DNA of 32,000 nucleotides from Candidatus Altimarinota bacterium (GCA_041659405.1 JBAZYK010000006.1:1-32000), one strand, 5' to 3'; shown: positions 56 to 12,447, counted from the first letter of the stretch. Numbers and translations: made by a program. Notes: generated from the sequence alone by a model not told the origin.

Positions 56-1168
56 TTAAAACCTGTTTTTTCTCTTTCCCTCAATATCAAATCCGTCTCG
101 CACTCTCGAAATCTTGGAAAGGGGTGTATCAAAATTATGACCCATTTCAATTCTGGAAAGATTCAACAAATCGCTTACCAGACGAATTGAGCGCTCATTA
201 CTGACAATAATTCCATGGACATAGTCTCGTTGTTCTTCATTTAATTTATGCTGTTTATTTTTACTTAGTAATTCGGCAAACCATTTTATGGCTGTTAGCG
301 GCTCACGCAATTGATGCGATGCCAAAGAGATAAACTCCGATTTCATGCGATCAAGTTCCCGGAGTTTTGTAATATCATGTTCCGTCCCAACAAAAAACTC
401 CACATTGCGTTTACTGTCCAAGACCGGAGTAATAACAATTTCCGCATCATATAATTCACCATTTTTCCTTTTATTCTGAACCTCCCCGCGAAAGACCTTT
501 TTGTCCTTATAAATGGTATTCCACATGTCCTTATAGAATTTTTTAGGCATATTTCCTCCCCATAATTTACCGGAAGATTTCCCAATCATTTCTTTTGGAT
601 CGTAACCCGTAACCACCTTTACACCTTTATTGGCATACAAAATTTTATCATCCGGATCTGTAATAATCAGATGAGTCGAGGCCTCTACAACCATTTTGAA
701 TTTCTTAAGTTCCTTGGCCAGATTTTTGGAAACAGATTTTGCTCTTCCCATCTGCTCCTCAAATTCTTCACGTTTACCAACATCTTCAAAAGCAAGAAAA
801 ATGGATTCCTGATGATCAGAACTGCAAATTATTTTAACGGCATTCAATAAAATAGTTTGCTTTCCAATTCGCGGAAAATCAGCCTCTATTTTAAAATCAC
901 AAAAGAAAGAATTTTTAGCCAAAATTTCCTCCAATAATTTTCTTAACTTTGGAATATTCCACTGTTTATCATTAAGCTGATAAATACATTTATCCAATAC
1001 TTCCTTCGCTTTAACTTTAAAAAATCGATAAAAAGCATTATTGGCCATCCTTACATTCAAATCCTGGTCCAAAACAAGCAAAGGCTCATGAATTGAATTT
1101 ATAATTTCGCCAACGTGTTCAGGGAAAGCCAATGAAGTTTTTTTTGAGTTTTTATGATTTGTATTCAT
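56..1168 (-). CDS. PAS-PAS-HisKA sensor protein, histidine-kinase-like but without a HATPase_c catalytic domain
   Basis: 370-aa ORF. The first PAS-like segment reads EPLLVLDQDLNVRMANNAFYRFF...QWNIPKLRKLLEEIL. The second reads THLIITDPDDKILYANKGVKVVTGYDPKEMIGK...GTEHDITKLREL. The H-box is SEFISLASHQLREPLTAIKWFAELL and is followed by LLNLSRIEMG. The ORF stops (TAA, 56-58) shortly after the dimerisation helix. Confidence 0.8.
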   Translation of the reverse strand: MNTNHKNSKKTSLAFPEHVGEIINSIHEPLLVLDQDLNVRMANNAFYRFFKVKAKEVLDKCIYQLNDKQWNIPKLRKLLEEILAKNSFFCDFKIEADFPRIGKQTILLNAVKIICSSDHQESIFLAFEDVGKREEFEEQMGRAKSVSKNLAKELKKFKMVVEASTHLIITDPDDKILYANKGVKVVTGYDPKEMIGKSSGKLWGGNMPKKFYKDMWNTIYKDKKVFRGEVQNKRKNGELYDAEIVITPVLDSKRNVEFFVGTEHDITKLRELDRMKSEFISLASHQLREPLTAIKWFAELLSKNKQHKLNEEQRDYVHGIIVSNERSIRLVSDLLNLSRIEMGHNFDTPLSKISRVRDGFDIEGKRKNRF

Positions 1169-1196
1169 GGGAAAGTTATTAAAGTTTAAATCTGTA

Positions 1197-4100
1197 TCAC
1201 GCAGATTTAAACTTTTTCCTCATTCTATAAAGCAAAAACATTCCAACCAGAATGACCACAACCGTAATCAGGGTTGAATACAGATTCAGGTAATAATAAG
1301 CCATTACCCAGAAGTTTTTATTAACGGTAAAAGTTTTAATGGCACTTGGTAAACTTTTCACCTTGGCAATTGGGTCAAGCGCTACGGCAAAAATGGAATG
1401 TTCACCGGGAGTCAGTTCCACATTACTTTGCAAATGATCCAAATTCCAAATTCCGTTACCATCCGCCTTTACCCTATAAACTAAAGCCTGATCACTATGA
1501 AGATAGAGAACCACTTCCTGATTTGGTAAAGCGCGTCCACTGAACTTAATCACATTCGCGGTTGAAGTTTCCGTAGTTGCTCCATTTTGGATTGAAACTA
1601 TCTGTGGTTGAGGAATATTTGGCAGCACAGTTGCCTCAGCCGCCTGGCCAATTGTAACTATTGCCGGTATAGGCAAAGGAGCTCCCGGGGCAATGCCACC
1701 AACAAGCGTTGTAGCGCCACCGGTAGGCCTTGCGGCACCAGGCAAAGCAGGTCCGCCCACCGCAGCTGCTCCCGTTAAACCAGCTGGAGCAACCACACGA
1801 TTTACATCTAACAAATTAACCGCGCTCGCATTTCCGGCAGGATCAACCACCACCAATTCAAACTGATGTTTTCCAAGAGCAAGGGTAGCGCCAGAAGGAA
1901 GATTGAAAGTCCAATTGCCAATTTCATTGGTTGCAGTGGTAAATTTAGTTTTCTTGTCCACGGTAATTTGAACTGTGGAATATGGTTCCGCAAAACCATT
2001 TAAAGTAGGTGTATCAGTTGAAATATTTTCATTTTCCGCAGGGTTAGCCACACTTGGTAAACCCGGAGGAGTTAAATCAATCAGCAAAGGCATTCCATTG
2101 GAATTTGCACTTGGATTATTGAACGAATCTACAGCTTTAACAGTCAAAATATGTTGACCTTCCGTAAAGGTGAAAGTCTGTCCAAATCTGCCATTGGCAT
2201 CAGCCAAAGCGGTAAAATAATCAACAAAAGTTCCATTATCATAAAGAATTATTTTGGCATTTGAGACAGCTACACCGGAAACATTCACGCTGGTTTTATT
2301 GGTTGGAGTCGCAAGACGATCCAGTACCGGAACATTCAATAAAGATGCGTTGAAAAGTACTGCAGGAGTTCCACCACCACCACTAACAACCGGCGTTGGA
2401 GTAGGTGCTGGAACTTCAAATAGATTAATAGATACAACCGTCGCTTCATTGCCATATTTATCCACAGCCCAAATTTTCACAAAATAATTATTGGTCAAAG
2501 GAATCCCTGTAATTGTAGTTATGGAAGTCAAAACATCACTCAAAGTTGGATCTTCCGTCGTGCTCCATTTTGTAGCAGTACCGATTCGCGCATCAACGTC
2601 AGTTTGGCTTGTCCCATGCCATAATTCGTAATGATCAAAATTACTCTCGGTCACAGAACCTGCCCAGTTTAAAGTTGCCGCAGTTGTAGTCGAAGAAAAT
2701 TTCGTTAGAGATGTAAGCCCAACCGGAGCTAAAGTATCTACCGCAAAATCGGTTGATTCAAAGACGCTGGAGTTTCCAAAACTGTCCGTAGCCTGTAAAC
2801 GAACACGGGCATTGGCTATTTCCGTAGTTGCCAAATCAACAGCAGGATTCCACGAAATTGCTTTACCGGCGCCGGCCGTTTGTCCGCTGCCAAAATTTCC
2901 GGCAAGTGTTGACGTTGCTACAGTCCAGGTTGTCCCGCCATTTTTAGAAATTTCCGGAGTGACTGTAATGTTAGAAGACGCATCATCGGCCAAATCATAA
3001 GCGATTGAAACCGCATTGTTTGCCCCCAAAGTTTGAGTGGCAATTAACGCACTCACAACCGGAGCCTTGGTATCGATTGCAAAATCAGCCGAATTGGCAA
3101 AAACACCCTGGTTTCCAAAATAATCCTTGGCCTTAACTCTGACTTTCATATTAGTTTTATGTTGAGCGCTAAAATCAGTTCCGGCGTCCCAGGTAAACGT
3201 TTTCGCACCGGTAGTAATACCCGTTCCAATTGCTCCGGTTACCGTTGTTGCCGGAACCGCCCAGGTAGTTCCACCATCCGCAGAAAACTCAGCCTCAACC
3301 AAAAATCCGGCCGGAGTGTTATCCGCCAAAGTATAGTTAACCTCAACATTGTCTGTTCCAGCTGTTTGAGCCGCAGTTACGCCGCTAACCACCGGCAATT
3401 TTGTATCGACTGAAAAATCATCGGAAGCCACAAAAGTACCAATGTTATCATAGGCATCGGTTCCACGGATTTTTATCTTCATTGTAGTACTTTCCTGATT
3501 TGCGAAATCAATTCCCGCATTCCAGGTTATATTTTTATTTGTGCCGATTGAGATGCCGGAACCAACATCACCAGCCATTGAAGTTGTGGCAACAGTGTAA
3601 GTTGCGCCACTGTCATCAGAAATCAAAGCCTCAACCGAATTGTTCGTACCGGAATTATCCACCATATCATAATGAATCGTTAAACCATCTGTCCCCGGAA
3701 TCTGCCCGATATTAATATTTGAAATTACCGGACCAAGCGTATCAACCGAAAAAGCGGAGGAAGTAGCCAAATTACCTGATGTTAAACCATCATTCGCCTG
3801 CAATCTTACATAAACGGTTGAACTGCCAAAGTTTGCCAAATCCGCCGCCAAATCCCAGGCAAAAACAAAAGAATGACCGGAAGAAGTAAACGCCAAACCA
3901 CTTATACCATCAGCTCCCACTCCCGCTTTTTGAGTCATGGTATGCCAGATGGAATTATCGGTGGAATATTCATAAGAGGTTAGATCATTTGTGTCATTTT
4001 GAGCGTCCGTTCCGGAGTAATTAACTAAAACATAACTTCTATTCAAAGGCTGCGCAACACTTGTAATACTTATAACCGGAGCAGTATTTGCAACAGCACC

Positions 4101-7100
4101 AACATTGGAGAAACTGCTTTCACTGCCGGATTGATGTGCAGTATCAGCCGGATTTCGTGATTTAACTTCAAAACTATATCGAGCCACCGGAGAAGTTAGA
4201 CCGGTCACGGTAATTTTTCCGCTTACACCGGAGCTATTTCCCCATTGCCCCGCTGCCGTTCCCAAAGTTTTCCAGACTGCAGCTGTATCCAATGAACCAT
4301 TTGTCTGCACATATTTACCGGTTGTAGTTTCAAAAATCGCATAAGGAACAGTACTCGATTCCCCTGTATGAGGATTTACCGTTACATCCACACTTGTATT
4401 TTGAGGATTGCCAACGGTTGGTGCATCCGGTTTATAAGGTTTAACGTATTTTTTAGTAGTTGAAGGCGCAGTATTTTCATTCGTAGCAGTTTTTCCATAA
4501 AGATCGCCCTCCGTTATTTTAACTTTGGAAACATAATCACTACCGGTAAGAGTTTGGCCGGCAGCCGTAGCCTGTGCCGGAGGAGTTGCGGTATTACCGG
4601 TTCCAGCCGTACTGGCGCCATAAGCCAAACCATTCAAAGCAAGCGCAAAATCATTGGTGCCCGGATTAGATTCGGTAAACGAACCTTCAATCAAAGCGGT
4701 TGTATCACCGGCATTTGGTTGAGTTGAAAGATCAGCCGCCGCATTGGTTGCAGGCGCCAAAGTATCCAAATTAAACGCCGTGGAAGAAACATTGTCACTA
4801 ACATTATTAAATCCATCCGTGCCACGCAATCTAACCATCATGGTTGATTTTTGGTGGTTTGTATAATCCGTTCCTGCATTCCAGGTTATGGTTTTACCGT
4901 TTCCGGCAGGTACCGCAGCGCCAAGATCACCGGCCGCAGTGATATGGGCAACAACCCAGGTACTTCCGGAATTATCGGAAATATCCATGGCAATTGCAGA
5001 TGTAGCGCTATCGGCAAGATCATAGGTAATCACAAAATTTTGTGATCCCAAAGTTTGAACAGCACCAATATTGGTAATAACCGGACCTTTGGTATCAACC
5101 GCAAACGAAGATGGAGTCGAAACACCGGCATTCCCAAACTGATCGGTCGCACTAACTTTAATTAAAAGATTTTGTTCATGATTTGGATAATCCGTTGCCG
5201 CATTCCAGGTAACAGTTTTATTAACAGCCGGAGTCACTCCGGTTCCCACAGCACCGGTTGCACTTGTTACCGGCACTATCCAAGTCACACCATTATCATT
5301 TGAAACACTGATTGAAACCGTGGAATTATTGGCATCAACAAGGTCATAAGCAATCGCGATCGTTCCCGCCCCGGCATTTTGGGAAGCCGTTACGTTACTA
5401 ACAACCGGAGCCTTTGTATCAACTTCAAAATTACCGGAAACCGTAAAATCACCTGCGTTACTATAAGAATCAGTCGCCTTCAAACGAAGTTTCATGATCG
5501 AAACTTCCTGATTTGCAAAATCGGTTCCGGCATTCCAGGTTATGGTTTTTCCGCTACCAGGAACAACACCTGCATTAATATCGCCACTCGCTGTGGTTAT
5601 TGGAACAACCCAATCACCTCCATCGTTGGCAGAAATATTAAGCTCAACATTAGAAACAGAAACATCACCAAGAGTATAATGAATCGTCACAGTGCCGGAA
5701 CCATTTGTAAGCATGCCAGCTGTTATGGCAGAAATAACCGGTTTTTTAGTATCAATTGTAAAAGAACTGGAAACGGCAGCAGCACCACTGGTATGACCAT
5801 CATTAGCCTGAAGACGTACATAAACCGTGGCATCTTCCGCATTGGCAAGATCCGTTCCAACGTCCCATTTAAAATGATGCAAAACTCCGGAGTCGCTAAA
5901 CGCAAGACCGGTCACTCCCTCACTTCCAACTCCACTTTTTTCGGTCATTGTGGTCCAGGTACTATTATCGGTTGAATATTTATATTGAACCAGACTGGAA
6001 GTTTCACTTTCCAAATCGATACCGTTGTAACTTATATCAACTATTTTAGAACCATCTGTACTTTGTGAAATCGAATTAAATGTAATGTGCGGCGATTGAT
6101 TGGCCGAAGAAGCTCCACTGGAAAGTGCACTTTCACTGGAAGGCGCAAATCCTGTATCACTTGGATTGCGTGACTTGACCTCAAATCCGTAAGTATAGGA
6201 ATGTCTGGTCAATCCGCTCACATTAACTTTGCCGGAAACACCCGAGCCATTTCCCCACTGTCCGGAGCCCGTTCCCAAAGTTTGCCAAACCGGACTCGCC
6301 CCTATGGTTCCATTACCCTGCACATATTCAGAAAGTGTAGCTTCAAAAATCGCATATTCCAGGGAATCAGCCTCTGCCGGATTTTTGTTGACTGTTACAT
6401 CAACCGTCCCAACTCCGGGATTATCAACCGTTGGAAGCGCAGGTGTATAAGGTTTAACATATTTTAACGCCGCAGATGGAGAAGTATTTTCATTGGTTAT
6501 CGATTGACCATATTTATCGGTGTGCGTAATTTTCACCTTGGAAATATAATCGTTACCTTTAAGCGTAACTCCCGTAGCCGTTGCCTGATTTGTCGGAGTT
6601 GCGGTATTTGTAGTACCCGCCGTACTTGATCCGTAACTTCCAACATCAACCGCCACATAAAAAGCATTGGTGCTTGGATTGGCTTCTGTAAAAGATCCAC
6701 CAATTAAAGCAATTGTATCACCTGCACTTGGTTGAGTTTGTAACTCGGCAGCTGCATTAACCGCCGGAGCCAAAGTATCCAAAGCAAAATTGGTTGAATC
6801 TACATCGCCCGAAGCATTATTAAAAATATCCGTTGCCTGAATACGAACCTGCATTGTTCCAAGTGTCTGATTTGGGAAATCGGCTGCCGCATTCCAGGTT
6901 ATAGTTTTTCCTGTTCCAGAAGCCACACTAGCCCCCAAAGCTCCGGTTGCGGACGTGGTTGGCACCACCCAACTTGATCCGCCATTACTGGAAATTTGCA
7001 ATTGAACGGTTGAATTATTTTGATCCGCCAAATCGTAAGTAATATTTACAGTCGTTCCACCCAAAGGCTGAGTTCCAGCCACCGTGGTCACTCTTGGAGC

Positions 7101-10100
7101 TTTAGTATCCAAAGAAAAAGCGGAAGAAGTGGTATTGGAAACATTGATATGTTTATCTGTAGCCGTAATTTTGATCTTCATGTCCGCATGTTCCTGATTA
7201 TCAAAATCGGTCCCGGCATTCCAGGTAATTGTTTTGCCTGCACCCGGCACAGTAGCGGCCCCAAATGCCCCTGCCGCAGATGTAATTGGCACCACCCAAG
7301 TTGAACCGCCATCGCTTGAAATAGCCAAGGCCGTATCAACATTTCCGTTATCTTCAGAAACGTCATAATGGAATGTAAATGTTTTTGCCACAGCATCCTG
7401 AACAGCGGTAACATTGGAAACCACCGGCGCTTTGGTATCCGCCTCAAAAGCGGACGAAGAACTATTCACGCCCTGATTGCCAAATGTATCAGTCGCCCTA
7501 ACCCGCACCATCATCTGAGTCGTATATTCTCCGTCATAATCACTGGCAACATTCCAGGTAATGGTTTTCCCCGCACCCGGAGTGATTCCCGCGCCAATTG
7601 CACCGGTTGCAGAAGCATGAGGAACAGTCCAGGTTGAGCCGCCATCAGCGGAAACATCCATTTGAACATTACTATTATTGCCATCAGTAAGAGTATAAAC
7701 AACCGTCACAGTTGTTGAAGTATCGCTCATTGACGCGGATGTAACAGCTGTAACCGGAACCACGTTATCAATAGCAAAAGCCGAAGAAGTGGCCACCGCA
7801 CTATCCAAAAGTGAATCATTTGATTTCAGTCTGATCAAAACGCTTGAATTTTCCACCCCCGCCAAATCGGTCCCGGAATCCCAGACAAATTTATAATTGC
7901 TACCGGTTGGCAAGAACACCAGATTGATTGTGCTGTTGGACCCAACTCCACTTTTTTCCGTCATTGTAGCCCAGATGCCACCACCATTTGTGGAATATTG
8001 AAACGAAGCCAAACTATTAATATCGCCCTGACCGTCGGTACCGGTATAATTAATGTTTACATATTTTGTACCATCGGTAGTTTGCGCAATACTCCCAAGA
8101 GTAACAGTTGGCGCAGTATTGGTAATTTGCGAAGGTGAAGACAAAGCCGATTCAGAAGACGCAGCATGCCCACCGTCATTTGGATTACGAGATTTTACCT
8201 TAAAAATAAACGTGGAAATATGTGGAGTAAGTCCGGTTACATTCACCTTGCCGGTAACTCCCGTCCCATTTCCCCATTGACCCGCTCCCGTACCCAAAGT
8301 TTGCCAAATCGCACCAGCTCCAAGCGCACCATTTGCCTGAACATATTGACTGGTAGATGTTTCAAAAATGGCATATTGCAGACCACTGGCCTCACTTGCA
8401 TTTGGAACAACCGTTAAATTTAAATTATTGGTTATTGGATTTGTAAGCGTAGGCGCCTGTGGAGTGTAAGGCTTAACATATTTGTAAGTCGCAGATGGTG
8501 AAGTATTTTCATTAGTCCCCGATTGCCCATATAAATCAGCATGCACGATTTTTACTTTTGAAATGTAATCGTTACCTTTAAGTGTTGTTCCGGCAACAGT
8601 ACTTTGATTTGATGGCGTAGCCGTATTCGGAGTACCAACCGTTCCCGCGCCATAATCCGCACCACTCACTCCAACAGAAAAAGTATTTGTACTTGGATTG
8701 GCTTCTGTAAAAGATCCACCAATTAAAACCGCAGAATCACCGGCATTTGGTTGAGCAAACAAATTGGCTATAGCATTGGTTGCCGGCGCCAAAGTATCAA
8801 GCGCAAAACTGATAGACGCAACAAAAACTCCCTGATTTAAAAATTTATCTTTTGCTCTAACCCTAACCTGAATATTGCTTTGTTGATGAGCCGGATAATC
8901 CGTCCCCGCATTCCAGGTTATGGTGTTCCCGATTGCCGCAGTCACTGCAGCACCAACTGCACCGGTAGCGGACGTAACTGGCACTGTCCAGGTCACTCCG
9001 GAATCACCGGAAACTGCCAATTCAACCAGCAAATTATCGGTAGTGTTATCTGTAAGATCATAAGTTATTTGCACCGAAGTAGTGCCCAAAGTTTCCGTAG
9101 CAACAACATTGGCAACCACCGGATTCACATAATCAACCGCAAAAGCGGAAGAAGTCGCAACCGCACTATCAAGAAAGCCATCATTAGCCTTAAGACGAAC
9201 CAGCACAGTCGCATTATAAAAACTTCCAATATCCGCAAGCGCATTCCAGACAAAAGTATGCGCAACTCCCGCCGCAGAAGTAGTAAGCCCAGTAATTCCG
9301 CTATGAGCAGGATCGGAAGTCGCAGCCGTCATTGTCTGCCAGGTCGTTCCATCAACCGAATATTCAGAAGCATTCAAATTGGAAACATCACTTTCGGGAT
9401 CCTGCAAATTATATGGCAAATAAACCAGGCCGGTAGAAGTCCCCTGGGCCGGTGTAAGGCTCGCAACCACCGGAGGATTATCCTGGGTATAATTGATCGA
9501 AACATTATTCAAAATTACCTGTTGGCTGCCATTACCGGACAAAAACGCCTTCCACCTGATTTTATTGGTAGTTTTGGTAAAAGTGGCGATATTCGTATTA
9601 ACAATGGCTGCGGTATTATAGTTGCCCGCTCCGGCTGTAGCCCAAGCCGTACCATTCCAATATTGCCAGGTTACCCCATCATCACTGGAAAGTTGATAAT
9701 TAATTTCTCCACCATTTTTAGTCGCCGTTTCCGCAAACGAATCCCAGCTTAAAACCTTTGCCGGATTCAAAGAAGTCGTCGGAGTTATGGTTGGACTGCC
9801 ACTATCGTAAACATGTGAGGTATTTGACCAGTTTAAAACAACATTATCAAAACCGGAAGTATAGGCATCACTTTCATCGGTAGTTAAATTATTAGTTGCA
9901 TAAGCGGCAAATTTTAAATAGTAAGTACCGGCCGCCCCCAATTTTGTGTGAACATCAATATTGGATACACTTGCCCAGGGAGTCGTTGCACTAATTTCTC
10001 CGCTATCCCAAACTTGCGTTCCCAATACCGGATCAGTATTTGCAGAATCAACAAAAGCGTAAAGATGATAGGTCTGTGGAGCAGTCGGTGAAGTAAAAAC

Positions 10101-10835
10101 TGTACTCGACCAATCGAGCGAAACTGTTGCCGTAGCCGGGTTTGCAACCGTAGTCACAAATGATTGTCTCCGATAACCTGCTACCGTTAAATTCTTTCTT
10201 GAAGCAGTAAGCGCAATACGAACGTAAGCATCGGGATTCCCACCGGAAGCTTGACGATTACTGGTTGCATTTGTACTAGGAGGTTGCAACCAGTTCGGAA
10301 AATTCCAACCGGTTAAATTGCTATCAAATCCAGCATTGGTTGTGGCTCCACTGAAGGTTACTCCCAAATCTTTTAATTGCGCATTCCCACCAGTTAATTC
10401 AATCTTTGCAGAATCAAATGTAAAGTTTGCAGGAGTGGTAAAAACCCAACTTTGTGTACTGGCAAACAGGGCCTGCGCGCCCAAAATAAAAAAGGAAACC
10501 ATGCCAATAAAGAAAATTTTAAGTCCATACAAAGCGGCCGCACCGGCTGCTGTAAAAATACCAATCTTGCGCCTGAGAATAAAAAAATGAAGGTGTTCCT
10601 TCTTTTTACCATCATGCGGAAAAATAAAGCCAAGCTGCTGAAGATCTTTCGGCGATACTATAAAAAACAAAGGCAAAGAAACCAGGAATGATCCCAGCTC
10701 AACCAAAAACAACAAAACAAAGTAAGGCAACGCCCTAAAAACGCCTTTTGATTCAAGTATTTTCTTTTTGATCGTAAAAATAAACCCCGAAAGATGAAAG
10801 AAAAAATTTAATAATTTTGTTTTAAATGCTGCCAT
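1197..10835 (-). CDS. Giant (3,212 aa) repeat-rich, membrane-anchored cell-surface protein (adhesin or envelope-structure-like)
   Basis: Uninterrupted 9,639-nt ORF. N-terminal hydrophobic segments lie at about aa 35-60 and 91-125, followed by a ~345-aa beta-rich N-terminal region. The core has 14 domains of ~110 aa, each with one S-x-D-x-G-x-T-W (Asp-box-like) motif and one W-[ND]-x-x-x-D motif. Three ~230-aa L modules (LDTLAP...KYVKPYTP...VKSRNP) separate the domain blocks. The C-terminal part has an FN3-like segment (HYELWHG...YFVKIWAVDKYGN), three Ig-like segments (e.g. GQHILTVKAVDSFNN, GKHQFELVVVDPAGN, GEHSIFAVALDP) and a Pro/Gly/Ala linker. It ends in a hydrophobic anchor followed by RMRKKFKSA. 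No LPXTG motif was seen. Confidence 0.9.
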   Translation of the reverse strand: MAAFKTKLLNFFFHLSGFIFTIKKKILESKGVFRALPYFVLLFLVELGSFLVSLPLFFIVSPKDLQQLGFIFPHDGKKKEHLHFFILRRKIGIFTAAGAAALYGLKIFFIGMVSFFILGAQALFASTQSWVFTTPANFTFDSAKIELTGGNAQLKDLGVTFSGATTNAGFDSNLTGWNFPNWLQPPSTNATSNRQASGGNPDAYVRIALTASRKNLTVAGYRRQSFVTTVANPATATVSLDWSSTVFTSPTAPQTYHLYAFVDSANTDPVLGTQVWDSGEISATTPWASVSNIDVHTKLGAAGTYYLKFAAYATNNLTTDESDAYTSGFDNVVLNWSNTSHVYDSGSPTITPTTSLNPAKVLSWDSFAETATKNGGEINYQLSSDDGVTWQYWNGTAWATAGAGNYNTAAIVNTNIATFTKTTNKIRWKAFLSGNGSQQVILNNVSINYTQDNPPVVASLTPAQGTSTGLVYLPYNLQDPESDVSNLNASEYSVDGTTWQTMTAATSDPAHSGITGLTTSAAGVAHTFVWNALADIGSFYNATVLVRLKANDGFLDSAVATSSAFAVDYVNPVVANVVATETLGTTSVQITYDLTDNTTDNLLVELAVSGDSGVTWTVPVTSATGAVGAAVTAAIGNTITWNAGTDYPAHQQSNIQVRVRAKDKFLNQGVFVASISFALDTLAPATNAIANLFAQPNAGDSAVLIGGSFTEANPSTNTFSVGVSGADYGAGTVGTPNTATPSNQSTVAGTTLKGNDYISKVKIVHADLYGQSGTNENTSPSATYKYVKPYTPQAPTLTNPITNNLNLTVVPNASEASGLQYAIFETSTSQYVQANGALGAGAIWQTLGTGAGQWGNGTGVTGKVNVTGLTPHISTFIFKVKSRNPNDGGHAASSESALSSPSQITNTAPTVTLGSIAQTTDGTKYVNINYTGTDGQGDINSLASFQYSTNGGGIWATMTEKSGVGSNSTINLVFLPTGSNYKFVWDSGTDLAGVENSSVLIRLKSNDSLLDSAVATSSAFAIDNVVPVTAVTSASMSDTSTTVTVVYTLTDGNNSNVQMDVSADGGSTWTVPHASATGAIGAGITPGAGKTITWNVASDYDGEYTTQMMVRVRATDTFGNQGVNSSSSAFEADTKAPVVSNVTAVQDAVAKTFTFHYDVSEDNGNVDTALAISSDGGSTWVVPITSAAGAFGAATVPGAGKTITWNAGTDFDNQEHADMKIKITATDKHINVSNTTSSAFSLDTKAPRVTTVAGTQPLGGTTVNITYDLADQNNSTVQLQISSNGGSSWVVPTTSATGALGASVASGTGKTITWNAAADFPNQTLGTMQVRIQATDIFNNASGDVDSTNFALDTLAPAVNAAAELQTQPSAGDTIALIGGSFTEANPSTNAFYVAVDVGSYGSSTAGTTNTATPTNQATATGVTLKGNDYISKVKITHTDKYGQSITNENTSPSAALKYVKPYTPALPTVDNPGVGTVDVTVNKNPAEADSLEYAIFEATLSEYVQGNGTIGASPVWQTLGTGSGQWGNGSGVSGKVNVSGLTRHSYTYGFEVKSRNPSDTGFAPSSESALSSGASSANQSPHITFNSISQSTDGSKIVDISYNGIDLESETSSLVQYKYSTDNSTWTTMTEKSGVGSEGVTGLAFSDSGVLHHFKWDVGTDLANAEDATVYVRLQANDGHTSGAAAVSSSFTIDTKKPVISAITAGMLTNGSGTVTIHYTLGDVSVSNVELNISANDGGDWVVPITTASGDINAGVVPGSGKTITWNAGTDFANQEVSIMKLRLKATDSYSNAGDFTVSGNFEVDTKAPVVSNVTASQNAGAGTIAIAYDLVDANNSTVSISVSNDNGVTWIVPVTSATGAVGTGVTPAVNKTVTWNAATDYPNHEQNLLIKVSATDQFGNAGVSTPSSFAVDTKGPVITNIGAVQTLGSQNFVITYDLADSATSAIAMDISDNSGSTWVVAHITAAGDLGAAVPAGNGKTITWNAGTDYTNHQKSTMMVRLRGTDGFNNVSDNVSSTAFNLDTLAPATNAAADLSTQPNAGDTTALIEGSFTESNPGTNDFALALNGLAYGASTAGTGNTATPPAQATAAGQTLTGSDYVSKVKITEGDLYGKTATNENTAPSTTKKYVKPYKPDAPTVGNPQNTSVDVTVNPHTGESSTVPYAIFETTTGKYVQTNGSLDTAAVWKTLGTAAGQWGNSSGVSGKITVTGLTSPVARYSFEVKSRNPADTAHQSGSESSFSNVGAVANTAPVISITSVAQPLNRSYVLVNYSGTDAQNDTNDLTSYEYSTDNSIWHTMTQKAGVGADGISGLAFTSSGHSFVFAWDLAADLANFGSSTVYVRLQANDGLTSGNLATSSAFSVDTLGPVISNINIGQIPGTDGLTIHYDMVDNSGTNNSVEALISDDSGATYTVATTSMAGDVGSGISIGTNKNITWNAGIDFANQESTTMKIKIRGTDAYDNIGTFVASDDFSVDTKLPVVSGVTAAQTAGTDNVEVNYTLADNTPAGFLVEAEFSADGGTTWAVPATTVTGAIGTGITTGAKTFTWDAGTDFSAQHKTNMKVRVKAKDYFGNQGVFANSADFAIDTKAPVVSALIATQTLGANNAVSIAYDLADDASSNITVTPEISKNGGTTWTVATSTLAGNFGSGQTAGAGKAISWNPAVDLATTEIANARVRLQATDSFGNSSVFESTDFAVDTLAPVGLTSLTKFSSTTTAATLNWAGSVTESNFDHYELWHGTSQTDVDARIGTATKWSTTEDPTLSDVLTSITTITGIPLTNNYFVKIWAVDKYGNEATVVSINLFEVPAPTPTPVVSGGGGTPAVLFNASLLNVPVLDRLATPTNKTSVNVSGVAVSNAKIILYDNGTFVDYFTALADANGRFGQTFTFTEGQHILTVKAVDSFNNPSANSNGMPLLIDLTPPGLPSVANPAENENISTDTPTLNGFAEPYSTVQITVDKKTKFTTATNEIGNWTFNLPSGATLALGKHQFELVVVDPAGNASAVNLLDVNRVVAPAGLTGAAAVGGPALPGAARPTGGATTLVGGIAPGAPLPIPAIVTIGQAAEATVLPNIPQPQIVSIQNGATTETSTANVIKFSGRALPNQEVVLYLHSDQALVYRVKADGNGIWNLDHLQSNVELTPGEHSIFAVALDPIAKVKSLPSAIKTFTVNKNFWVMAYYYLNLYSTLITVVVILVGMFLLYRMRKKFKSA
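2742..4769 (-). repeat. Super-repeat unit 3 (2,028 nt / 676 aa): L module plus B-A-A-A domain block, the most diverged copy
   Basis: Begins at LDTLAPATNA (Leu codon 4767-4769). KYVKPYKP is encoded at ~4434-4445. Trp landmarks are at 3855, 3522, 3189 and 2850. It ends at FAVDTLAPVGL (~2714-2760). Confidence 0.85.
4770..6782 (-). repeat. Super-repeat unit 2 (2,013 nt / 671 aa): L module plus B-A-A-A domain block
   Basis: Begins at LDTLAPAVNA (Leu codon 6780-6782). KYVKPYTP is encoded at ~6447-6458. Trp landmarks are at 5865, 5535, 5205 and 4881. It shares a 36-nt identical tract with unit 1 (6673-6708 = 8692-8727). Confidence 0.85.
6783..8801 (-). repeat. Super-repeat unit 1 (2,019 nt / 673 aa): L module plus B-A-A-A domain block
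   Basis: Begins at LDTLAPATNA (Leu codon 8799-8801). KYVKPYTP is encoded at ~8466-8477. Trp landmarks are at 7881, 7554, 7221 and 6894. Confidence 0.85.
8802..9475 (-). repeat. Partial first block of the domain array (one B-type plus one A-type Asp-box domain)
   Basis: The array starts at TQDNPPVVA (~9463-9488). Conserved Trp codons of the W-[ND]-x-x-x-D motif are at 9246-9248 (FVWNALADIG) and 8913-8915 (ITWNAGTDY). Confidence 0.8.
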
Positions 10836-10853
10836 CTATTTAAAATTAAACAG

Positions 10854-11675
10854 CTAAAAAATTAGAAAGGTGGAGAATAAACCAATCGCAATAATAAGCA
10901 CCAATGACCAGTTAGCCAGGTTGTCCACGTTTTGGATCAAGACATCAAGCCACAAAGAATTTAGCTTAAAATATCGTTCCTCCGAAAGCTGACTACGCTC
11001 ACCTGTTTTTGGATTAAAACTGTAAAGCCATAAAGAATGATTACCCTCATTCAACTTAAATTCAGCCTGCGAATGTTCAATTTGCCATTGGCCCTTGTCA
11101 TCGGCCTGACCATAATAAATGGCATCCTGCTGGGCGGAAATCATTAAAACCACCGTCACTAAAGGTTGCGCAGTTCCCGTAAACACAAAATTACCACTGG
11201 AATTTATCTCCAGCTTTTTAAAAATCGGAGCAATAATAGCATTGTTGATTTGAGCTGTCTGAATTCCGGTTTCCGTAGAAAGCAATTGTTCATTTTGCAC
11301 AGACGTAGGTGATAACGATGAAACACGATAAAGTGGCAGCGGACCATACAAATATGGCACCGTCACAATCAACAACAATTTTATTACCCAAATAGCCAAA
11401 ACCACACCAAGACCGGCAAGTGTCACAACACGCCTCAAATTATAATTCAGGGTAACTTTTTCATAAGTTCCATGTTCCTTCATGTAAGCCACGGCCTTAT
11501 CGGGCTTGATACTCAAATAAAAAGGCAAAGAAACCAGCGCCAAAAACGTTTCCAACAAAAAAAGTATGAAAATATTAACAATAACTTTTAAACCGGTTTG
11601 TTTAATTATTTTCTGCCTTATTTCGTAAATCCGGTTCGAGAGTTTTAATGAAATATTTAGCCATTGTGTTTTCAT
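10854..11675 (-). CDS. 273-aa membrane protein, a miniature paralogue of the giant protein (shared N-terminal membrane module, one Ig-like domain, C-terminal anchor)
   Basis: N-terminal IFILFLLETFLALVSLPFYLSIKP aligns with the giant protein's YFVLLFLVELGSFLVSLPLFFIVSP. A second hydrophobic segment follows LRR in both proteins. C-terminal FTGTAQPLVTVVLMISAQQDAIYYGQADDKGQWQIEHSQAEFKLNEGNHSLW aligns with the giant protein's last Ig-like segment. It ends in the hydrophobic stretch WSLVLIIAIGLFSTFLIF. Confidence 0.8.
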   Translation of the reverse strand: MKTQWLNISLKLSNRIYEIRQKIIKQTGLKVIVNIFILFLLETFLALVSLPFYLSIKPDKAVAYMKEHGTYEKVTLNYNLRRVVTLAGLGVVLAIWVIKLLLIVTVPYLYGPLPLYRVSSLSPTSVQNEQLLSTETGIQTAQINNAIIAPIFKKLEINSSGNFVFTGTAQPLVTVVLMISAQQDAIYYGQADDKGQWQIEHSQAEFKLNEGNHSLWLYSFNPKTGERSQLSEERYFKLNSLWLDVLIQNVDNLANWSLVLIIAIGLFSTFLIF

Positions 11676-11679
11676 TTTT

Positions 11680-12054
11680 TTAAATTAATTTCTTAATTTT
11701 TTTTGCCAACACAGATAAATCCGTATCAGCCTTAATGAAATAATCAATTGCCCCAAGCGCTTTAGCCTTTCCTATATCAGCTTCATCACCAAGGTTGGAC
11801 AAAATAACCACCGGAATTTGTTTTAATGTTGAGTTTGATTTTAAATTTTTTAATAAAGCAAAACCATCCATTACCGGAAGCAGCAAATCCAGCAAAATAA
11901 TGTCCGGTTTTATTCTTTGGGCGATTTCCAGCGCGCTCTGACCATCACCGGCGGTCGCGATGGTATTTTCACCATGCAACAGCACATACAAAGCCCGCAA
12001 CAAGGGTTCCTCATCTTCAACAATCAAAATTATATGTTTCTTTTTTGTATTCAT
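11680..12054 (-). CDS. Stand-alone response-regulator receiver protein (CheY-like, no output domain)
   Basis: 124 aa. It has the acidic pair in IVEDEE, the phospho-acceptor context DIILLDLLLPVMDG, ILSNLG (S/T position) and FIKAD (conserved Lys). Confidence 0.9.
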   Translation of the reverse strand: MNTKKKHIILIVEDEEPLLRALYVLLHGENTIATAGDGQSALEIAQRIKPDIILLDLLLPVMDGFALLKNLKSNSTLKQIPVVILSNLGDEADIGKAKALGAIDYFIKADTDLSVLAKKIKKLI

Positions 12055-12057
12055 ATT

Positions 12058-12447
12058 TTAGTTTTTCAGTAATGAATTGAGAATAAAATCAACAATTTTT
12101 TTCAACTCGATATCCGCCTTGGTAAAATGCTTTTCCGCTCCCAATACTTGAGTGGATTTTATATCCGCAACCGCATCCAGATTTGAAAGCACCACCACGG
12201 AGATTTTCCTGGTTTCTTTTGCTGATTTTAATTGCTTCAAAACCGCAAAACCATCAAGACCGGGCAAAACCAGATCAAGCAAAATCGCATCGGGACCAAA
12301 TTTCTTGGCCGATTCCAAAACCTTAAAACCGTTATCCACTACCGAAACTTCAACATCTTTTTCCAAAAAACTTTTACTTAAAATCTGCGATAAAAGAGCA
12401 TCGTCCTCAACAATCAATAATTTCTTTTTTGTTTTTTTATTGAACAT
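12058..12447 (-). CDS. Stand-alone response-regulator receiver protein (CheY-like, no output domain), tandem paralogue of the next gene
   Basis: 129 aa with IVEDD, DAILLDLVLPGLDG, VLSNLD and FTKAD. Only 3 nt separate it from the downstream receiver gene. Confidence 0.9.
   Translation of the reverse strand: MFNKKTKKKLLIVEDDALLSQILSKSFLEKDVEVSVVDNGFKVLESAKKFGPDAILLDLVLPGLDGFAVLKQLKSAKETRKISVVVLSNLDAVADIKSTQVLGAEKHFTKADIELKKIVDFILNSLLKN

Follow-up and report, generated by a model that had tools for sequence, protein, structure and literature searches.

What is built when the Asp-box, the S-x-D-x-G-x-T-W hairpin of sialidase-type propellers, recurs only once per ~110 amino acids (aa) along a giant bacterial protein? 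The question is raised by a 32,000-nucleotide (nt) stretch of DNA from Candidatus Altimarinota bacterium (GCA_041659405.1 JBAZYK010000006.1:1-32000), here called the window, in which a single gene encodes a 3212-aa protein (P0001) with 14 related domains of two subtypes, A and B, interrupted by three longer L modules. A first-pass annotation of the window proposed that these domains form a string of beta-sandwiches rather than a propeller. AlphaFold2 models and structure searches agree with this proposal, and they predict that the A/B units are a chain of separate beta-sandwich domains. The array is probably the stalk of a giant fibrillar-adhesin-like surface fibre of a Patescibacteria (candidate phyla radiation, CPR) bacterium, with 14 Asp-box sandwiches and three FN3-like pairs. 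It represents a new stalk-domain family within a known kind of molecule, the giant fibrillar surface protein.

Architecture of the protein and its repeats

The protein is encoded by one intact open reading frame (ORF) on the minus strand, which has no internal stop and stays open for 9.6 kb. Its 3212 residues include no cysteine, and the predicted ectodomain is acidic, with an abundance of Thr, Ala, Ser and Gly. From the N to the C terminus the blocks are arranged as B-A-L / B-A-A-A-L / B-A-A-A-L / B-A-A-A, such that the first block has two A/B domains only. Domain borders are set by a recurring F-x-[VL]-D-T-K-A-P junction. The stalk thus defined consists of tandem sandwiches (14 A/B domains, six in the L modules and about four near the C terminus) with virtually no linkers between them. 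The parts are as follows, in window coordinates.

1197-10835, minus strand: whole gene of the predicted giant surface protein P0001, 3212 aa
10455-10835, minus strand: N-terminal membrane module (aa 1-127); its hydrophobic stretches fall near aa 32-62 and 91-127; also present in the 273-aa "mini" protein encoded upstream
9486-10454, minus strand: N-terminal ~323-aa domain (N-domain, aa 128-450), a candidate distal or ligand-binding domain
9666-9689, minus strand: Asp-box SSDDGVTW of the N-domain (aa 383-390)
9135-9485, minus strand: B1 (aa 451-567), B subtype, short Asp-box SVDGTTW
8799-9134, minus strand: A1 (aa 568-679)
8124-8798, minus strand: L1 module (aa 680-904), two FN3-like sandwiches (La and Lb)
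7770-8123, minus strand: B2 (aa 905-1022), B subtype, Asp-box variant STNGGGIW
7440-7769, 7110-7439 and 6780-7109, minus strand: A2, A3 and A4 (aa 1023-1352)
6105-6779, minus strand: L2 module (aa 1353-1577), two FN3-like sandwiches
5754-6104, minus strand: B3 (aa 1578-1694), B subtype, short Asp-box STDNSTW
5421-5753, 5097-5420 and 4767-5096, minus strand: A5, A6 and A7 (aa 1695-2023)
4092-4766, minus strand: L3 module (aa 2024-2248), two FN3-like sandwiches
3744-4091, minus strand: B4 (aa 2249-2364), B subtype, short Asp-box STDNSIW
3408-3743, 3075-3407 and 2739-3074, minus strand: A8, A9 and A10 (aa 2365-2699)
1311-2738, minus strand: C-terminal stalk, with an FN3-like domain (aa 2700-~2800) followed by Big_13/Big_6 Ig-like domains (best stretch aa 2936-3010)
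1200-1310, minus strand: putative C-terminal hydrophobic anchor (aa ~3181-3207), then the basic tail RMRKKFKSA

The periodicity described in the first-pass annotation is reproduced throughout. Each of its 14 Trp codons in the W-[ND]-x-x-x-D motif was recovered at the same plus-strand position (9246, 8913 / 7881, 7554, 7221, 6894 / 5865, 5535, 5205, 4881 / 3855, 3522, 3189, 2850, where the position is the lowest base of the minus-strand codon). These codons correspond to Trp residues 530, 641 / 985, 1094, 1205, 1314 / 1657, 1767, 1877, 1985 / 2327, 2438, 2549 and 2662. The spacings of 324-339 nt within blocks and ~1030 nt between blocks recur as reported, and the super-repeat units are exactly 2019, 2013 and 2028 nt long when they are phased as L-B-A-A-A. 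Autocorrelation of the protein over residues 450-2750 recovers both expected periods (~110 and ~672 aa), with peaks at lags of 671-673 and 1344 aa (identity 0.23-0.28) and weaker ones of 0.11-0.12 at 110-111 aa, compared with about 0.10 at the other listed lags. At the DNA level, members of repeat families lie 2013 and 2019 nt apart. Tandem Repeats Finder reports no repeats in the array because the copies are too diverged for it. The extent of the array, which had been placed at 2742-9475, needs only slight widening to 2739-9485, and the family profile matches each of the 14 domains far beyond chance (E 1e-25 to 1e-36).

The A and B sequences align over their full length, with identities of 38-55% between A domains and 20-30% between A and B. 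They are therefore two subtypes of one domain, and their alignment establishes homology at the sequence level. Seven columns are invariant across both subtypes (P5, Y25, S42, W74, D79, D96 and F110), and the shared signature reads Y-D-L-x-D, W-N-A-G-x-D and R-V-x-A-x-D. It had been claimed that every domain carries exactly one Asp-box. This is strictly so in nine A domains. Domain A5 has the shifted form SANDGGDW, B2 is also a variant, and the Asp-boxes of B1, B3 and B4 are one residue short. A fifteenth Asp-box lies outside the array in the N-domain, and when the A/B profile is aligned with the N-domain by hhalign, 16 residues around this Asp-box alone are matched.

Conservation among homologues was measured across 143 more distant proteins, which hold 1208 domain instances in all. 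The best-kept positions in these copies are W74 (98%), D29 (87%), D96 (86%) and D79 (82%), followed by the S (75%), G (68%), D (64%) and W (59%) of the Asp-box. The Asp-box is thus retained in homologues, yet the alignment indicates that the W-x4-D motif and the other Asp residues are kept better.

The L module had been described as a spacer whose second half looks FN3-like. That description holds for the second half, but FN3-type signatures occur in both halves. A profile of the module searched against PDB sequences matches titin FN3 domains only (E 4e-4), whereas Pfam gives no match to the L modules and places fn3 below threshold (E 0.12) at aa 2700-2800. Since both halves carry the signatures, L is probably a pair of divergent FN3-like sandwiches rather than one, and a super-repeat would therefore hold six domains. 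The first halves (La; window 8469-8798, 6450-6779 and 4437-4766) open with the same D-T-L-A-P junction, and their final strand, K-V-K-I-x-H-T-D-x-Y-G, resembles the R-V-x-A-x-D-x-F strand of A domains. An hhalign comparison of the A/B and L profiles aligns La over its full length (96 columns) at an insignificant probability of 4%. As a hint only, La may be an A-type domain that has lost its Asp-box and Trp motif.

Predicted fold and family identity

An AlphaFold2 model of one super-repeat (residues 905-1577) was computed from a 35-row alignment of the same cassette in the window and 13 related loci. The strand pattern in this model corresponds to six all-beta domains in a row, one B, three A and two in L. 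Its mean predicted local distance difference test score (pLDDT) is 92.8, and its predicted template modelling score (pTM) is 0.62, which means that the orientations between domains are only moderately defined. Domain A4 alone, predicted from a 115-row alignment, has a pLDDT of 97.7 and a pTM of 0.89. It forms a sandwich of 7-8 strands, in which the W-N-A-x-x-D motif adopts a one-turn helix. According to the DSSP string of this model, the final residue of strand 33-40 is the first of the Asp-box, and a loop and a bridge residue come after the motif. Each A/B domain is predicted to contain one Asp-box hairpin just after its third strand.

Foldseek searches of the PDB place the super-repeat among immunoglobulin (Ig) and FN3 chains, including contactin, the leptin receptor, the cardiac thick-filament chain 8q6t and PTP-delta, at template modelling (TM) scores of at most 0.29. 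No propeller occurs among the matches of either the super-repeat or the single A domain. With the single A domain, nothing reaches E<=1e-3 in the PDB or in BFVD. The best PDB match has an E of 0.03, the best TM scores are 0.42-0.59, and the proteins concerned are assorted Ig-like domains (PmoB, the SrpA adhesin, archaellin, the Bap C-region and DUF3823). InvE also appears, beside SrpA and the Bap C-region, among the weak-scoring adhesin matches. Sulfite oxidase (2a9a) is found at rank 31 (E 0.2, TM 0.42) and shares the general fold class, and FN3 and Ig-like domains among viral predicted structures match at the same weak level.

Among the super-repeat matches there is also an S-layer protein, SbsC (5ftx), at rank 21 with an E of 2e-7. 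Together with the archaellin match of the single domain, it raises the possibility that the sandwiches self-assemble into a two-dimensional coat as part of a surface-layer (S-layer) or other envelope lattice. The TM score to SbsC is only about 0.2, however, and the protein is very long, has putative hydrophobic anchors at both ends and varies among orthologues by whole domain cassettes. Moreover, no more than about 1% of the Patescibacteria genomes sampled were found to carry the gene, which is too few for a general envelope component. A lattice role is accordingly quite unlikely.

In sequence searches with the whole protein, each domain and the L modules, no Pfam-A or NCBIfam model reaches threshold for A, B or L. 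Below threshold, the names BNR, Reelin_subrepeat-B, Mo-co_dimer, CHB_HEX_C and Tli3 appear in P0001 and its relatives. Their best stretches mostly cover 10-35 residues around the hairpin (59 for Mo-co_dimer), and their scores are summed over many copies. When the A/B profile is searched against PDB sequences, GH33 sialidases are matched through their Asp-boxes with whole-sequence E values of 1.8e-5 to 1e-3, although the best single stretch is ~40 residues long and has an E of about 1.

These GH33 and BNR matches are what would be expected if the repeats formed one or more sialidase-type beta-propellers and the protein were an exo-alpha-sialidase or other glycosidase. A 2595-aa homologue with 14 A/B domains (P0048) indeed bears the NCBI name "exo-alpha-sialidase". 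The likeness to the 6-bladed GH33 propeller consists of the shared hairpin and, within the ~40 residues, the two strands before it. The PDB matches cover 20-40 residues around the hairpin and nothing beyond, and their single-stretch E values are about 1 or worse. In P0001 the Asp-boxes are ~110 aa apart rather than one per blade, AlphaFold2 predicts separate sandwiches with pLDDT values of 93-98, and no catalytic sialidase model is matched in Pfam or NCBIfam. The propeller reading is effectively refuted by these observations. Because the domains are predicted to fold as sandwiches and the family has no catalytic domain, the sialidase label of the homologue is probably a misannotation driven by its Asp-boxes.

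Asp-boxes outside propellers have a precedent. Chitobiase, sulfite oxidase and reelin have been known since 2009 to carry single Asp-boxes in Ig-like sandwiches (PMC2716378). Quistgaard and Thirup found the hairpin exposed at the surface of these non-propeller folds, where it supports contacts between domains and, in reelin, the rod-like chain (PMC2716378). Three of the Pfam names found below threshold, Reelin_subrepeat-B, Mo-co_dimer and CHB_HEX_C, coincide with the non-propeller folds of that study. The C-terminal domain of chitobiase (CHB_HEX_C), the dimerisation domain of sulfite oxidase and nitrate reductase (Mo-co_dimer) and reelin subrepeats A and B all resemble the P0001 domains in having one Asp-box hairpin in a beta-sandwich, and it is to exactly these families that relatives of P0001 show summed matches. 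P0001 and its 14 domains nevertheless remain below the curated thresholds for CHB_HEX_C and Mo-co_dimer, and the relatives match in the hairpin region only. Unlike the domains of chitobiase, sulfite oxidase and reelin, the A/B domain is found in bacterial surface proteins as long arrays of 6-36 tandem copies and has its own signature. One Asp-box per Ig-like sandwich is thus a known principle, while the A/B family itself is uncatalogued in the libraries scanned. A search of the literature for the A/B domain, or for giant CPR surface proteins with Asp-boxes, returned nothing specific.

The historical link between Asp-boxes and glycosidases (PMC2716378) suggests another role, in which the A/B domains are carbohydrate-binding modules (CBMs) and the protein is a multivalent lectin or a scaffold that captures polysaccharides. 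Single members have weak Pfam matches to Cbm74 (E 8e-4), CBM_56 (E 6e-4) and Ig_Rha78A_N, and pullulanase N-terminal domains and the xylanase D CBM align with the profile at E 0.3-0.4. In other phyla, moreover, large extracellular proteins carry the A/B domain beside Kelch, FGE-sulfatase and RCC1 modules. All of these Pfam matches fall below curated thresholds, however, and they concern only one or two of the 14 members. What is conserved, namely a buried Trp, an Asp in a turn and a Pro in the linker, looks structural, and Quistgaard and Thirup find no sugar-binding role for Asp-boxes (PMC2716378). On balance sugar binding by the array seems unlikely.

Distribution, age and stability of the array

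A 14-row A/B profile was searched against 1.84 billion cluster representatives (50% identity). It retrieves 4995 proteins at E<=1e-3, of which 1762 remain at E<=1e-10, with up to 36 copies each. Orthologues with the full architecture are 52-64% identical over the super-repeat, range from 1.8 to 4.7 thousand aa in length and occur in Uhrbacteria, Buchananbacteria, Magasanikbacteria, Falkowbacteria and other Patescibacteria. More than 50 of them follow the same block plan, and their domain counts are quantised at 6, 14, 18, 20 or 26, with blocks of 2/4, 2/4/4/4, 2/4/4/5/5 or 2/4/4/8/8. Orthologous genes are also found in several metagenome-assembled genomes from third-party annotation (TPA) records that are titled "uncultured Gammaproteobacteria" (L001-L003, L007, L009, L012, L015, L026, L029 and L032). 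These titles look wrong because all named carriers of the architecture are Patescibacteria.

More distant copies occur in Verrucomicrobiota beside FGE-sulfatase (L046, L045), in Planctomycetota beside Kelch propellers (L058), in Myxococcota and in Nitrospirota. Bacterium ADurb.Bin374 has 28 copies beside an RCC1 propeller, and in the proteins P0055 and P0056 the domain forms arrays of 28-34 copies with a ~107-aa period. In the proteins from distant phyla, too, no Pfam model covers the A/B domain. The unit is a common extracellular domain, represented by ~5000 cluster representatives in at least five phyla, that current curated libraries leave unmodelled. As a consequence, its carriers remain "hypothetical", receive no more than the label "Ig-like" or are wrongly named "exo-alpha-sialidase" from their Asp-boxes.

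Within the phylum, 44 of 400 other Patescibacteria genomes sampled have an A/B domain, but only about 3-5 of them have the multi-copy giant form. No L module of comparable score is present in 300 other genomes of the window's own class. Horizontal transfer of the giant gene was considered on this account and dropped, since a result of 0 in 300 is not significant when only ~1% of the genomes in the phylum sample are carriers. The genome from which the window derives (1.51 Mb, 98.5% complete, 21 contigs) encodes two more single A/B copies (C3:137658-138029 and C3:151478-151840), in ORFs of 1292 and 1936 aa.

The age of the array can be judged from its orthologues. At 13 of the 14 positions the window domain is closest to the same-position domain in nine orthologues, with identities of 46-61%, as opposed to 19-52% for domains at other positions. 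The repeat copies are 60-83% identical in DNA. The longest exact repeat is 36 nt (window 6673-6708 in L2 and 8692-8727 in L1), and none of the others exceeds 20 nt, a length that would neither mislead assembly nor cause frequent recombination. The positional orthology, the divergence of the DNA and the shortness of the exact repeats therefore indicate that the array is old, position-specific and under purifying selection, and that it has not been recently amplified or homogenised.

The same results bear on whether the array was created when repeats collapsed or formed chimeras during assembly of the genome from a metagenome. Genes with repeats are a recognised hazard of assembly, the genome is in 21 contigs, and the 36-nt repeat is shared by L1 and L2. 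Against such an origin stand the diverged copies and the 9.6-kb open frame, as well as about 35 complete homologues from other sources that have the identical 14-domain plan and position-specific orthology. An assembly artefact can be set aside with near certainty.

A candidate contact fibre and its genomic surroundings

Fibrillar adhesins are built from a stalk, an anchor and a distal domain (Monzon, Lafita & Bateman 2021, PMC8286594). P0001 shares with them, and with Bap, SiiE and MpIBP, a long stalk of tandem ~100-aa beta-sandwiches. Further features in common with fibrillar adhesins are a putative anchor at one end and a distinct non-repeat domain at the other, whole-domain length variation among relatives and an acidic, Cys-free ectodomain. 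Several differences set it apart. Its predicted anchor is a transmembrane helix, in place of LPxTG or the type I secretion system (T1SS)/outer-membrane plug of fibrillar adhesins, and it has hydrophobic modules at both ends. Its repeats are old and position-specific, whereas those of MpIBP or Bap are near-identical. Its stalk domain belongs to no catalogued family detectable with Pfam, and it has no known adhesive domain and no RTX repeats (the Pfam scan of P0001 gives no match to HemolysinCabind or related models). More generally, neither the profile searches nor the structure searches assign A, B or L to a characterised family of adhesin domains.

If P0001 is a fibre of this kind, then the C-terminal transmembrane helix and the basic cytoplasmic tail would hold the chain in the membrane, with the remainder outside the cell. 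Judged by hydropathy, the C terminus fits such an anchor, although the N terminus is hydrophobic as well. An Ig-like domain is ~4 nm long. About 26 sandwiches, joined by the short conserved F-x-[VL]-D-T-K-A-P linkers, could therefore project the ~320-residue N-domain up to ~100 nm from the cell, and this domain, like the distal domain of fibrillar adhesins, would form the functional end. Surface-exposed Asp-box hairpins may stabilise contacts between domains in a non-catalytic manner, by analogy with reelin and sulfite oxidase. Together with the short Pro-containing junctions they would plausibly stiffen the chain. The conserved Asp residues (D29, D79 and D96) may bind Ca2+ as in other extender domains, such as those of RTX adhesins (PMC7493085). 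The whole protein might then act as a contact or tether, and the fixed number of domains would set its reach.

Some observations argue against a projecting fibre with an adhesive tip. Hydrophobic segments are present at both ends of the protein. If the N-terminal membrane module is retained and stays embedded, then the chain would instead form a loop. The N-domain (323 aa) has no match in Pfam, NCBIfam or PDB sequences, and hence belongs to no known adhesive family. It is also as conserved as the stalk (45-59% identity), which would be unusual for a tip that confers host specificity. Finally, the pTM of the super-repeat model leaves the course of the chain from one domain to the next only moderately defined.

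Even with these points taken into account, a surface fibre remains the probable function. Patescibacteria account for a large share of bacterial diversity, and all cultivated members live attached to other microbes, yet little is known of their attachment beyond type IV pili (PMC12206443). The P0001 family is a concrete candidate for a contact fibre in Patescibacteria/CPR bacteria. A curated profile and one crystal structure would improve the annotation of thousands of large surface proteins and would test whether Asp-boxes serve as inter-domain struts.

A much broader synthesis can also be put forward, and taken as a whole it is a long shot. The Asp-box Ig-like domain would be an extracellular module in its own right and of ancient origin. 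Within it, the strand-strand-Asp-box unit of ~40 residues would have a common ancestor with the blade of sialidase propellers, such that a single peptide links the sandwich and propeller folds. The hairpins and the Asp triad would make a Ca2+-dependent, stiff and length-calibrated tether that is anchored at both ends. The receiver and kinase genes that flank the giant gene would read the mechanical state of this tether as a host-contact signal in an episymbiotic CPR bacterium.

The giant gene is the fourth of five same-strand genes (window 56-12447, minus strand). Its neighbours are as follows.

12058-12447, minus strand: CheY-like receiver, first of the same-strand run
11680-12054, minus strand: CheY-like receiver, second of the run
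10854-11675, minus strand: 273-aa "mini" paralogue, with the N-terminal membrane module and the last Ig-like domain of the giant protein
56-1168, minus strand: PAS-HisKA protein, downstream of the giant gene, with no HATPase_c match

The Ig-like domain that the giant and "mini" proteins have in common is the last one of the C-terminal stalk. In about 24 related loci the giant gene is likewise immediately preceded by the "mini" gene. A PAS-HisKA gene is present in 18 related loci, and in most of these it is located a few kb downstream.

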